From the NCBI GenBank assembly GCA_963790205.1, contig CAWBNQ010000001.1, positions 288,001-352,000 on the forward strand: a stretch of DNA of 64,000 bases, read 5' to 3'. Shown here piece by piece: positions 2,865-8,297 of the stretch. The notes under the pieces were generated by a model. The model saw nothing but the letters and a program-made list of their open reading frames with translations, was not told the origin of the DNA and ran no database searches. Source of the DNA: Nitrospirota bacterium. Its GTDB lineage: Bacteria; Nitrospirota; UBA9217. Numbering within the stretch: the stretch's first letter is position 1; every line of letters starts with the position of its first letter. Made by a program: the position numbers and the translations under genes.

Positions 2865-3241
2865 GGCAATATCTCCTTTCTCGTGTTTTGTAAAGCATAG
2901 CGGACGCGTCCTTTCCTGTCAACAGCCGATGCTACGCCGCATTCTGAAGTCTTCATTCTTACTTCATACTTCCTTACTTCGAAATCTGATTTCCCTCCTC
3001 CCGAAAACCTTCAGGAATTTCGAAGCGAAAACTCAGGGAATCCCCGATGCCGATTTTCTTACGCCTCCGCCGTCTTTGCTTGATTTTTCGGGATAAGTGT
3101 ACTATCCTCGTGGTGAACAGAATAAGGAAGAAGTGGGAATTAAGAAGGATGAAATAAAGAGAGGTTCATTTTCATGCTTCTTAATTCTTAATTGATGTAA
3201 ACATAATTCCTAATTCATACTTCTTAATTGGAGGTTGCTTC

Positions 3242-3727
3242 ATGAACACGAATAAGCCGTCTCGCACTGTTCCTTTCATCTTCGGATTGGTACTGGGTGT
3301 CCTGGGCGCGGTCTTCCTGCCCAACTACGTGCGGCCCTACATCCCCGAGTGGGTGACGGGCAAGGCGCCTGTCGTCGTCAAAGGGACCGTCACGGCCAAG
3401 CTGAAAAAAGACCATGCTCTTCTTCTGACCGTGGATACGCCCGACGGCGTGCTTTTGGCCACCTTCAAGAAGAAGGTCGACGAGATCAACCTTCTGGTCA
3501 ACGAGAAAGACGAGCTCGAATTTACCCTGCCGAAGTACATGCCCTTTATCGACGACCCGAAGATCATACGGGTTGTAAAAGAACAGCCGGCGGCCCCCGG
3601 ACCGGCCCCTGAAGCCAAGCCTGCGGATAAAAGCACAAAGGAAGTTAAACCCAGGCGGCGGGAGAAACCGCAGGCCGCTCCCCCGGCTCCCGGCGCAACA
3701 GAAATGAAACCGAAGGAGAACAAGTAA
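3242..3727 (+). CDS. Hypothetical membrane-anchored protein
   Basis: GGAGG SD, N-terminal TM segment, Pro/Lys-rich tail. Confidence 0.7.
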   Translation: MNTNKPSRTVPFIFGLVLGVLGAVFLPNYVRPYIPEWVTGKAPVVVKGTVTAKLKKDHALLLTVDTPDGVLLATFKKKVDEINLLVNEKDELEFTLPKYMPFIDDPKIIRVVKEQPAAPGPAPEAKPADKSTKEVKPRRREKPQAAPPAPGATEMKPKENK

Positions 3728-3848
3728 GAAGGGAAAGCAAGTATGAAGTAAGAATGCAGAAGTAGGAAATTTGTTTTCTTAATTCATAATACTTACTTCT
3801 TAATTTTGTTTAATGAAGGGCCGATAATATTCTGGAGATCATCAAGCA

Positions 3849-3945
3849 TTTGTCCACAGACCTTATGATTAACGCAGATGGATTCTGGTTTAAAAGGAAG
3901 ACTTGCTTTTTCTGCGTGCTCTGCGACATCTGCGGATAAAATAGG
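3849..3945. repeat. REP-like palindromic unit (CCACAGA...ATCTGCGG family)
   Basis: Similar to the unit reconstituted from 3958-3969 plus 5393-5485; related motifs near 14382 and 18091. Confidence 0.6.
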
Positions 3946-4049
3946 TTCTGGAAGAAGTTTGTCCACAGACCTTATGATTAAAAAGGCAAGTCTGACTTAA
4001 GGTATATTAGGTCTATCCCGGACCAAAATACACCAAAAGGAGACTTGCC

Positions 4050-5120
4050 ATGAATAACGTTAGCAGACTCGATTTCACTGGTCAACAAATTTATGTCGGT
4101 ATGGACATTCATAAGAAAAGTTGGAGCATCAGTATTTTTACCGATCAGTTCGAGCATAAGACCTTTTCACAACCTCCGGAGGTCGGGGTGCTGGTAAACT
4201 ATCTCAAACGCAATTTTCCGGGTGCAGCCTATAAGTCGGTCTATGAGGCCGGTTACTCCGGTTTCTGGATACATGACCGGCTTCAGGAGCGAGGCATACA
4301 ATGTCTCGTGGTCAATCCGGCGGATGTGCCCACAAAAGACAAAGAGCGCGCAGGCAAGACCGACCGGGTGGACTGCCGCAAGCTAGCCCGGAGCCTCAGA
4401 AACGGCGACATCGAAGGGATCTATGTCCCTACGCGACCAAAAGTCGAGGACCGCAGCCTCCTTCGTACTCGAAATAGCATGGTAAGGAAACAAACTCGCT
4501 GCAAGAACCAGATCAAGTCGATCCTGAGCTTTTACGGTATCGACATACCGGACGATTTCATCAACGGTTACTGGTCCAAACGCTTCATCAATTGGATCGA
4601 GTCCGTACAAATGGAGCGGGCCAGCGGCAACCTATCACTCAAGATACACTTAGACGAGCTTAAGCATCTTCGGCATATCATTGCCGAGATGAACCGGGCG
4701 ATCCGCGCCCTGGCCAATTCGGACGACTATCGGAACAATGTCCGGATACTTAAGACCGTGCCGGGAATCAGTACCTTGACCGCGATGATGCTCTTGACGG
4801 AGCTGTATGACATCAATCGTTTCAAGACGCTCGACAAACTCTGCAGCTACGTTGGCCTTATCCCCGATACCGATTCCAGCGGGGAAAAGGACCTTAAAAC
4901 CGGCATGACCGGCAGGCGGAACGCCCAGCTTCGCTTCGTCTTGATCGAAAGCGCTTGGACGGCGGTGCGAAAAGACCCTGCCCTAATGATGGCGTTCAAT
5001 GAGCTGTGCAAACACATGACAAAGACCAAAGCTATCGTTCGGATCGCCCGGAAGCTGTTAAACCGCGTCCGGTACGTTTTAAAGAACCAACAAGAATACA
5101 CTACGGCGGTTGTTCAATAA
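4050..5120 (+). CDS. IS110 family transposase/recombinase
   Basis: RuvC-like DEDD (GMDIHK, YEAG, KTDRVD), VPGI HhH, SYVGLIP...DSSG catalytic Ser region. Confidence 0.95.
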   Translation: MNNVSRLDFTGQQIYVGMDIHKKSWSISIFTDQFEHKTFSQPPEVGVLVNYLKRNFPGAAYKSVYEAGYSGFWIHDRLQERGIQCLVVNPADVPTKDKERAGKTDRVDCRKLARSLRNGDIEGIYVPTRPKVEDRSLLRTRNSMVRKQTRCKNQIKSILSFYGIDIPDDFINGYWSKRFINWIESVQMERASGNLSLKIHLDELKHLRHIIAEMNRAIRALANSDDYRNNVRILKTVPGISTLTAMMLLTELYDINRFKTLDKLCSYVGLIPDTDSSGEKDLKTGMTGRRNAQLRFVLIESAWTAVRKDPALMMAFNELCKHMTKTKAIVRIARKLLNRVRYVLKNQQEYTTAVVQ

Positions 5121-5368
5121 AAAACCGATATTTATAGCCGATCTTAAACCCGTGTTTCACCGTGGGTATCGTCTTGCGTAATCTACAGCGGATCGAAAGA
5201 TGCCGTCTGTGCTTCCACAGACTACGAACCCACGCCTTCATAATTAATCAAGGCAATGCAGCGTTTTCTTCATCAACGAAGACTGTCTGCTCATAGAAGA
5301 TTGGGTTTGAAGATTGCGTTCGCTATAAATCGCTCCTTAATAAAAGAGATGCGTTTATGCCAAAAGAA
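5121..5368 (+). ncRNA. Putative bridge/seek RNA of the IS110 element
   Basis: Two stem-internal loop-stem domains (about 5161-5234 and 5237-5311) whose loops contain GTAATCT/TCCACAGA (target) and AAGG/CATAGAAGA (donor). Confidence 0.75.
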
Positions 5369-5496
5369 AGACTTGCTTTTTAACATAGAAGATTACACAG
5401 ATCACACAGATGAATGCTTGGGTTTTAAATCCAGAAGTCTTTTGGTTTTATCTGCGGCCATCTGCGCCATCTGCGGATAGATAGGTCTGAATTTTG

Positions 5497-5685
5497 ATGT
5501 CAAAGAGCCCATTTGTAGATGAAGAGCTGTGCATAGGCTGCGGCCACTGCATGGAAGTTTGTCCCCAGGTTTTCGAGCTCATCAACGAGAAGTCGAACGT
5601 GATCGGGCCGGACAAGTGCGGCACCTGCAACTGCCAGGAAGCGATCGATACCTGCCCGGTGCAGGCGATCAGCTGGGAGGAGTAG
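5497..5685 (+). CDS. Ferredoxin (single cluster)
   Basis: CIGCGHC...CP and CPVQAI motifs, 62 aa. Confidence 0.9.
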   Translation: MSKSPFVDEELCIGCGHCMEVCPQVFELINEKSNVIGPDKCGTCNCQEAIDTCPVQAISWEE

Positions 5686-6120: not shown

Positions 6121-6697
6121 ATCGCAGGCGGGATATATTATAAAGCGTAAGCAGGTAAGAGTAGGATTTATGAAGTAAGAAATTTTTCATAATTCATAAT
6201 TCTTACTTCGTAATTCTTAATTGTTGTGAGTGAAGGGCTGATATGCCGCCTGTAAAATAAGAGGTTGCCTTATTTTAGTTTTTGTGTAAAATCTAAAATA
6301 ACCAGCATGCTTGTTTTAGCATAACACGCTAGCCGCTGAAAAAGTCCTCTTGAAGAAGGAAGGCGAATTTTAGGGACGTTGATACCCAGCGTGCAAAAAG
6401 TTTTCCCGTACTTCGAAGGCTGGCAAGAAGATGTTGTTGTTGAAATGGCGTGAAGAGAAAAGGCCGAGAGGAAGAGCTCATGCCGTCGGCGACATCGGCA
6501 TATCCACGATCACCTTTGCGGAACTTCGCTACGGCGTCTCCAAGAGCCAGCACATCCAAAAAAAACCAGCAAGCCCTCGATGAGTTCATTCTCCCCCTCG
6601 AAATCGCGGACTTCGATGAAAAGGCGACCCAGGAATACGGAGCAATCCGGGCAGCGCTCGAAAGAGCAGGGTGAACTGCACCCCTGAGTTTGGACAG

Positions 6698-7519
6698 TTA
6701 GCTTAGAGTAATCGGACAGGGTGCTTTTTGAATCTGATTTATCAGCATTGCCTCGTATTCAGTTGGAGGAACGTAATCCAGTGAGGCATGTAGTCGTTCC
6801 TGATTATACACTTGCTCGATGAAGTATGGAAGCCGTCTGAGAACGTCATCCAGGGTCCGGTATTCCCAGAGATAGACTTCCTCGGTCTTTACGGTTTTCA
6901 TGAAGCTTTCGGCGAAGGCGTTGTCGTACGGATTGCCACTCCGAGACATGCTAATCTGGAAACCATGGCTTTTTAGCTCGTCGATGTAGTCATGAGCTGC
7001 ATACTGTACTCCTCGGTCCGAATGGTGAATCGCGCCGGGAAGGGGGTTTCTGCTCTGGATCGCCATCCGAAGCGCTGAGAGGCTCAATGCCGTGTCGATA
7101 TTCCGTGAGATGGCATATCCAATTGCTTTCCGCGAACAGAGATCCAGAATAACCGCCAGGTATACGAAGCCGACTGCGATCCGGATATAGGTGATATCGG
7201 CAACCCATACCTGATTGAGGCTGGTTACCCGCAGGTCTTTAGTCAGGTTCGGATATACGGGATAAGGATGGTTGCTGTCAGTGGTTCTGACGAAGCGCCT
7301 GGTTTTCTTGACCAGAAGGCCCTTTTCCCGCATGATCCGGTGCACTTTTTTGTGGTTTACCGGGACAGCTTCCCGATGCAGCTGACGAGTGACTTTCCGA
7401 TACCCGGCTTTCGGGAACTCTTCGGTGATTTCCTCGATCCGGTTGACCAGGACCTGGTCCTCAGGGAGCAGTTCCTGTTTCTTTGAATTATAATAGTAGC
7501 TGCTTCGAGGGAGCTTCAT
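6698..7519 (-). CDS. IS3 family transposase OrfB (rve DDE)
   Basis: WVADITYI, HHSDRGVQY, DNAFAES motifs. Confidence 0.95.
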   Translation of the reverse strand: MKLPRSSYYYNSKKQELLPEDQVLVNRIEEITEEFPKAGYRKVTRQLHREAVPVNHKKVHRIMREKGLLVKKTRRFVRTTDSNHPYPVYPNLTKDLRVTSLNQVWVADITYIRIAVGFVYLAVILDLCSRKAIGYAISRNIDTALSLSALRMAIQSRNPLPGAIHHSDRGVQYAAHDYIDELKSHGFQISMSRSGNPYDNAFAESFMKTVKTEEVYLWEYRTLDDVLRRLPYFIEQVYNQERLHASLDYVPPTEYEAMLINQIQKAPCPITLS

Positions 7520-7869
7520 GAGTTCGCACCCCCTCGTGACGGTTTTGATAAGGTCTCGGTGGTCGGTAATGAACTGCCTTTTTTTCGGGACTGATCGAAG
7601 CTCTGATGCAGCGCTTTTTTTAAAAACTCATTTTCCAGGTGAGCTTTTCCGAGCGCCTGCTCCAACTGGCCGATACGTTCTTCCAAAGCAGCTTCTTTGG
7701 CAGAGTCGGCCTCGAAGCTGTTTTTGATAAACTGCTTCCTCCAATGATACAGAAGCCCGGAGGAAATGCTGTGTCTCCGGCAGAGCTGGGCCGCAGTGCT
7801 GACCCCGCTCAAGTATTCTTCAACAACTTGGCGCTTGAATTCGGTACTGAACTTCCTCTGTTTGCTCAT
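7516..7869 (-). CDS. IS3 family transposase OrfA (HTH)
   Basis: RKFSTEFKRQVV HTH; A7G slippery motif for -1 frameshift. Confidence 0.9.
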   Translation of the reverse strand: MSKQRKFSTEFKRQVVEEYLSGVSTAAQLCRRHSISSGLLYHWRKQFIKNSFEADSAKEAALEERIGQLEQALGKAHLENEFLKKALHQSFDQSRKKGSSLPTTETLSKPSRGGANS

Positions 7870-8297
7870 GACAAGATCCTTTCTGCCCCTCGGGGCTGAA
7901 GATCCTGTCCGACATTCTAACATATTTGTCTAAACGGAGGGGGTCAGTTCAGGGAAGCCCACCGGATCAATGGGCATGCTGATAGGAGCGCACGCTTTTC
8001 GCTCTCGGCGCGACTCTTGTTACCAATAACACCAAAGAGTTTAAGCAAATAAGGAACCTGAAGATCGTAGATGGAGCGCGTAGCCGGCTTAGAGGACATT
8101 CTAGGCCAGGTCTTTGACGTTTAAACACCCAAGTCAGGGCTATAGTGTTTGCCTTTCGCGTTTTCGCTCGGAATCCCCCGCGACCTCTCAGGGTTGCGCC
8201 GCTGTTGACACCTGCCCGTTCCTGACCTATATTTCCCCGAAAGAATTGATGCAAGCCGCATGATGCTCACCTGACAACAGGATCCTGTGATAGAGAG

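Follow-up and report, generated by a model that had tools for sequence, protein, structure and literature searches.

The mechanism of RNA-guided recombination on which this work draws is set out, for IS621 and ISEc11 among others, in the available portions of four papers (PMC11208160, PMC11208158, PMC11187229, PMC13626964). A bridge RNA has been predicted in 93% of IS1111 elements, according to the accessible part of Durrant et al., and the part available of a 2026 preprint describes the scoring of guides for 32,190 bridge RNAs (10.64898/2026.10.21.760802). A screen of 72 orthologues in human cells detected activity in only 18. The ends of IS1111 elements follow a rule, by which the sub-terminal inverted repeats carry 7-bp and 3-bp extensions (PMC11187229, available text).

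Here we describe an IS1111-type IS110 element in a window of 64,000 nucleotides (the whole stretch of DNA analysed) from a Nitrospirota bacterium; positions are those of the window, on the forward strand unless stated otherwise. The tail of the element very likely encodes a two-loop bridge or seek RNA with four guides that would steer the recombinase. An earlier note on this DNA had proposed a bridge or seek RNA here, and the proposal is upheld by guide-flank covariation, compensatory stem pairs, intact catalytic residues and six identical copies; all six motifs that it listed were found where it had placed them. The mechanism was already published in 2024, and the element is a clear new example of it, the mechanism itself not being new. 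Our literature search returned no study of the element's clade, which closed or bioRxiv supplements may include among screened orthologues.

The element, its ends and its recombinase

The element occupies 3967-5389 (1,423 bp with one AG core counted), its ends being set from homologue junctions. Six full copies, identical over 1,425 nt, are present in the genome, together with a seventh that is split into halves on two contigs (G000 C11:1-737 and C3:1073710-1074430). Because the C3 half adjoins unrelated sequence, the seventh copy was probably interrupted.

The recombinase gene (4050-5120) is an intact reading frame of 356 amino acids with both IS110 domains (PF01548 and PF02371), and the protein scores above the cut-off of profile NF033542. 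In an alignment to IS621 and ISCro4, D19, E66, D105, D108 and S277 align with the catalytic residues of IS621, and the protein has the DEDD RuvC-like domain and the Tnp domain with a catalytic serine that define broad IS110 membership. The earlier note called the recombinase complete and likely active; the intact gene and the identical copies suggest that the element may have been active recently. The best named protein matches were ISHvo10 (28.5% identity), ISEc45 (26.0%), ISBth166 (24.9%) and IS4321 (20.9%), and in protein alignment none of the named elements compared exceeds 29% identity to the clade. In a 15-row tree with four named elements the deep forks were unsupported, and ISHvo10 and ISEc45 were not joined to the clade with support (58/47). 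The family took in 5,526 of 7,151 candidates at E ≤1e-30 and was found in 12 genomes among 401 from the phylum; of the titled records, those nearest to it come from Nitrospirota and Syntrophales MAGs. Two other IS110 families are present in the genome in two copies each (G000 C2:81259, C5:26460, C1:496675 and C1:230706), and their proteins are 24-27% identical to the recombinase of the element.

Imperfect sub-terminal inverted repeats were located from the sequence and by an inverted-pair search. The left repeat (3974-3993) begins 7 bp inside the end, core counted, and the right repeat (5369-5386) stops 3 bp short of the core, which are the extensions of the IS1111 group. The same extensions were counted in 108 of 108 and 85 of 85 homologue ends, although these counts were anchored on the very motifs in question and are not independent. 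As in the IS1111 group, the longer non-coding part lies 3' of the gene (~270 nt, against ~81 nt on the left). Joining of the ends yields a -35/17/-10 pattern, in which a predicted -35 within the right repeat (5373-5378) is separated by a 17-bp spacer from a predicted -10 (3973-3978), and of 54 distinct junctions from homologues, 50 show the same pattern. A scan of 3700-5600 for internal promoters and terminators gave three promoter-like sites, against 2.8 expected, and no terminators. A search for the circle junction in the element's own assembly gave two 13-nt matches, neither inside the element, and the circle joint was absent from the public contigs of four runs, contigs being prone to drop rare forms. 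In the one RNA run (X20) the RNA-library contigs that span the element are only those of a 90-95% relative; they demonstrate neither a discrete RNA nor transcription, and we rejected them as a sign of expression.

Insertion sites, core dinucleotide and target guides

All seven left and all seven right junctions of the element lie in the same 9-bp unit, which belongs to a family of REP-like palindromes ~85-90 bp long. Unoccupied palindromes of this family are also present in the genome, and in a related organism a single contig runs across the window's site in its empty form (5 differences in 48 nt). In the window, copy comparison places the left part of the interrupted palindrome at 3958-3966, and the right part, with 9-bp units on both arms, occupies 5392-5479. 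Repeat search also revealed a neighbouring REP copy (3849-3938) with an altered first unit, which opens with the element's left flank, core and first left-end bases, the palindrome resuming at a 6-base microhomology. This copy may have been left behind by an insertion since lost, or may be an artefact of assembly polishing; none of the public contigs searched spans the altered unit. The resemblance of 20 nt at 3892-3911 to the right end was discounted: because relatives' contigs match 3867-3938 (4 differences and 2 gaps), this stretch is probably native palindrome spacer. The window also contains a second palindrome family, A/T-rich, imperfect and intergenic (3121-3229, 3739-3808 and 6160-6222), and an IS3-type element on the minus strand (6698-7923) with rve and HTH_Tnp_1 domains, the end sequence of which occurs four times in the genome.

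The core dinucleotide was found to be AG, at 3967-3968 on the left (CT on the bottom strand) and 5390-5391 on the right. Homologue junctions are mostly AG (108 of 112 called on the left; on the right 72 of 85, with GG in 12 and AA in 1), while the base that follows varies in the 85 right junctions (A 44, G 29, T 10, C 2), which identifies AG as the core. The GA core of the earlier note was thus rejected as being off by one base, a misreading that arose because donor and target share an A in this genome, where all copies read AGA at both junctions. Where the right junction is GG, the guide is also GG in 10 of 12 cases. On the other strand AG is CT, the core of IS621 in the available text of PMC11208160, PMC11208158 and PMC13626964.

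The predicted target-binding stem-loop (5161-5234) carries two guides. The 5' guide was correctly recognised earlier as complementary to the target, but its extent was understated (5178-5184); it is 10 nt long (5175-5184) and complementary to the core and right flank. The 3' guide (5214-5220) is identical to the left flank and core. Among the element's own copies, the eight non-core bases of the 5' guide match at 8 of 8 positions in five of the seven and at 7 of 8 in the other two, including that of the window, and agreement between the 3' guide and the left flanks of these copies is limited to 3-5 of 6 positions. When the 240-nt tail was dinucleotide-shuffled 2,000 times, the lengths of the three main matches were reached in 181, 28 and 4 shuffles, and jointly in none.

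We compared guides and flanks across homologues. The set comprised 172 loci, 146 of them at ≥50% protein identity (124 unique), from which ends and guides were excised by motif anchors, so that loci without an end or anchor fall out; the left-flank test also omits L019, L120 and L121, in which the left end is mis-called or altered. One locus was taken per distinct guide, 84 loci per guide underlying the 43 and 54 distinct guides tested. The 5' guide matched the right flank at 6.15 of 7 positions (54 guides), against 3.41±0.14 under permutation (0/10,000), the best-scoring of three registers being taken for real and permuted pairs. For the 3' guide and the left flank the match was 4.53 of 6 (43 guides), against 1.98±0.17 (0/10,000). 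Within a clade of ≥81% protein identity, 12 distinct 5' guides still matched 6.83 of 7 positions, against 3.57 (0/10,000 permutations), and nine different 3' guides matched 4.33 of 6 (1/10,000). Homologues are kin and not independent, and the permutation values overstate significance; nevertheless, so many different guides on near-identical recombinases are, on sequence comparison, hard to explain without a guide function. The covariation of loop bases with flanks that the earlier note had proposed as a check is therefore present for both target guides. Because matching falls past -5 (from 56/88 to 26/84) and past +7 (from 56/84 to 28/84), the target comprises ~14 bp.

In two homologues (L080 and L146) the RNA is broken at the identical base, right after the 3' target guide, by foreign sequences that resemble each other, perhaps belonging to a further element with the bridge RNA gene as its target.

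Predicted RNA fold, donor loop and handshake bases

The tail folds better than its shuffles (z = -3.39). The best single-sequence fold pairs both target guides partly (mean unpaired probability 0.56 and 0.35), and opening them costs 3.6 kcal/mol, the median in 88 homologous loops being 2.5. Guides paired in the predicted fold were what the earlier note had said would count against it, and they are so paired in the single sequence; in the consensus of 72 sequences (drawn from 84 anchored distinct sequences), however, the target guides are open. Six of the 12 consensus pairs are compensatory, and no pairs were predicted for the donor domain. Counted as a named structure, a separate donor-binding stem-loop (predicted at 5236-5312) is 91% paired in its outer helix (UA 32, CG 25) and 98.6% paired in its inner helix. 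A multiloop donor domain closed by 5141-5151/5303-5314, suggested by the single fold, was rejected at 67% paired versus 91% for the separate stem, alignment gaps affecting both counts. On four of the five measures both named structures scored above every one of 500 shuffles, an excess that can follow from kinship among the sequences. An Rfam search of the RNA region brought no family near any gathering score.

Of the two donor guides claimed earlier, the 3' one (5292-5299), identical to the right end and core, follows the element end: its last two bases equal it in 82 of 82 loci (GA 50, AA 21, GG 11), although this agreement spans three clades and so represents few independent events. The 5' donor guide (5250-5253), complementary to the left end, is only 4 nt long and weak, matching at 3-6 of 6 positions (mode 4) in 33 distinct pairs. 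Homologues provided one perfect divergent case (L018, with a 6-of-6 change) alongside imperfect ones, and in one clade the guide is mismatched.

The predicted target-loop handshake dinucleotide (5221-5222) is the same as the one with which the left end of the element begins. Loop and left end both read AC in 91 of 96 loci and AT in two, with three other combinations; in homologues at 34-39% identity both read CA in 9 of 15 loop calls, the rest being CC, CG or GC. In the predicted donor-loop dinucleotide (5300-5301) the first base tracks the target, agreeing with its first post-core base in 33 of 54 cases versus 21.2 under permutation (1/10,000), and the second showed no covariation with the target (9 versus 7.7 permuted, 54 distinct). 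Wild-type IS621 passes from one to three handshake pairs, according to the available text of PMC11208158 and PMC13626964. By this rule, the element's Watson-Crick handshake pairs would rise from two to four on insertion, a direction favouring insertion. As a counterpoint, A5300 is able to pair with the donor already before exchange, a state reported to have lowered IS621 activity.

Several homologues depart from this layout. In four distant Bacteroidota (L033, L034, L035 and L046) the 3' tail contains two tandem target-loop-like units with different guides, the second of which matches the right flank in L035; a literature search listed no description of tandem target-loop units. Twelve homologues (L002-L004, L006-L010, L019, L088, L093 and L103) have ~190 extra structured nt 3' of the donor loop, making a right end of ~465 nt, and L073 has ~185 extra nt ahead of the target loop. 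The distant homologues L026-L055 also have AG as their core and obey the 7/3 rule at their ends, and their flanks may resemble integron attC ends.

Proposed mechanism and comparison with known systems

The sequence anatomy, copy number and covariation described above were established directly; for transcription, binding, the circle and the chemistry we infer the course of events from IS621 and ISEc11. The ends of the element would join into a circle, and the junction would create a promoter, the transcript of which would supply both the recombinase and the RNA. The first loop would open the ~14-bp target (~5 bases, core and ~7 bases) within the REP-like palindrome, while the second would hold the circle junction, and a recombinase tetramer would exchange strands at the core.

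It is conceivable, though in our judgement unlikely, that a processed target-loop RNA alone is the working guide, the protein recognising the ends mainly via the sub-terminal repeats and the donor loop being accessory. According to the available text, an 82-nt RNA sufficed for ISEc11 (PMC11187229) and target-loop-only RNA made up 90.4% of the transcripts of CazIS110-1, which nonetheless still required the full RNA in the same assay (10.1101/2025.10.25.684509, part available). The weak 5' donor guide and the ~18-bp repeats at the element's ends would fit such a mode; the conserved donor-loop scaffold, with its inner helix 98.6% paired, the 3' donor guide that tracks the element end in three states, and the 6-of-6 change of the 5' donor guide in L018 all speak against it. 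We likewise hold it improbable that base pairing is necessary yet insufficient, with a target hairpin or a palindrome-bound host factor gating insertion. A stem-loop gate has been described for ISPpu10 (10.64898/2026.03.19.712850, available text), and seven right junctions in one unit, most of them in full palindromes, despite a mismatched left guide, would be consistent with one here. Homologues with the same scaffold, however, use many unrelated flanks, and for at least one of the element's own copies (C1:804369) a second arm of the palindrome is not evident within 130 nt. We give hardly any credence to the matches being chance or duplication relics, with the protein alone picking the target: the 7-nt match by itself arises in 181 of 2,000 shuffles and the RNA matches no Rfam family, but among close recombinases the guides vary with their flanks while the surrounding scaffold stays constant, and this guide-flank covariation has already largely refuted such a reading.

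Under the preferred reading, that of a two-loop RNA with four guides, the element is a fully decodable candidate recombinase, the six identical copies of which suggest recent movement. With its homologues, it supplies naturally matched guides and targets for a clade distant from both IS621 and ISEc11, and it bears on whether IS1111-type elements employ a donor loop and handshake pairing. More speculatively, and with considerable doubt, the element could be the type member of a deeply diverged right-end bridge recombinase clade, which retains every part of the IS621 grammar, from the CT core to the two loops and the handshake, on a flipped substrate. If so, the 'reversed guide order' of IS1111 would be merely a flip, natural retargeting would have occurred at least 54 times in our sample, with one core base reprogrammed via the guide, and the two tandem target loops of a sister branch would allow one element to address two targets; the clade could then offer a compact, orthogonal genome-writing tool.

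Judged from its sequence, the element would work like both IS621 and the IS1111 seekRNA elements, and the structure of its ends, the position of its RNA and the order of its guides place it with the IS1111 group. As described in the available text of Siddiquee et al. 2024 (PMC11187229), ISEc11, ISPa11 and ISKpn4 share with it a long non-coding region 3' of the gene, a junction promoter, sub-terminal repeats whose extensions measure 7 bp and 3 bp, the GL-P----SG motif, and a guide complementary to the top strand placed 5' of a bottom-strand guide (here 5175-5184 before 5214-5220); with ISPa11 it also shares a REP target. It differs from these three, as far as that text describes them, in its evident second, donor-binding loop, its own RNA being predicted from sequence, and from the core IS1111 group in its distant recombinase (20.9% identity to IS4321). 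ISHvo10 (28.5%) and ISEc45 (26.0%), its best named matches, were compared by protein alone. Unlike IS621 and ISCro4/IS622, according to the portions available of PMC11208160, PMC11208158, PMC13626964 and 10.1101/2025.05.14.653916, the element carries its RNA at the right end and has long inverted repeats, the arrangement of target and donor with respect to the gene is flipped, and the protein similarity is weak (~30 bits). Read on the bottom strand, however, the element has the order of IS621 as given in that text: a CT core, an identical guide, then a complementary guide, and then the handshake bases.
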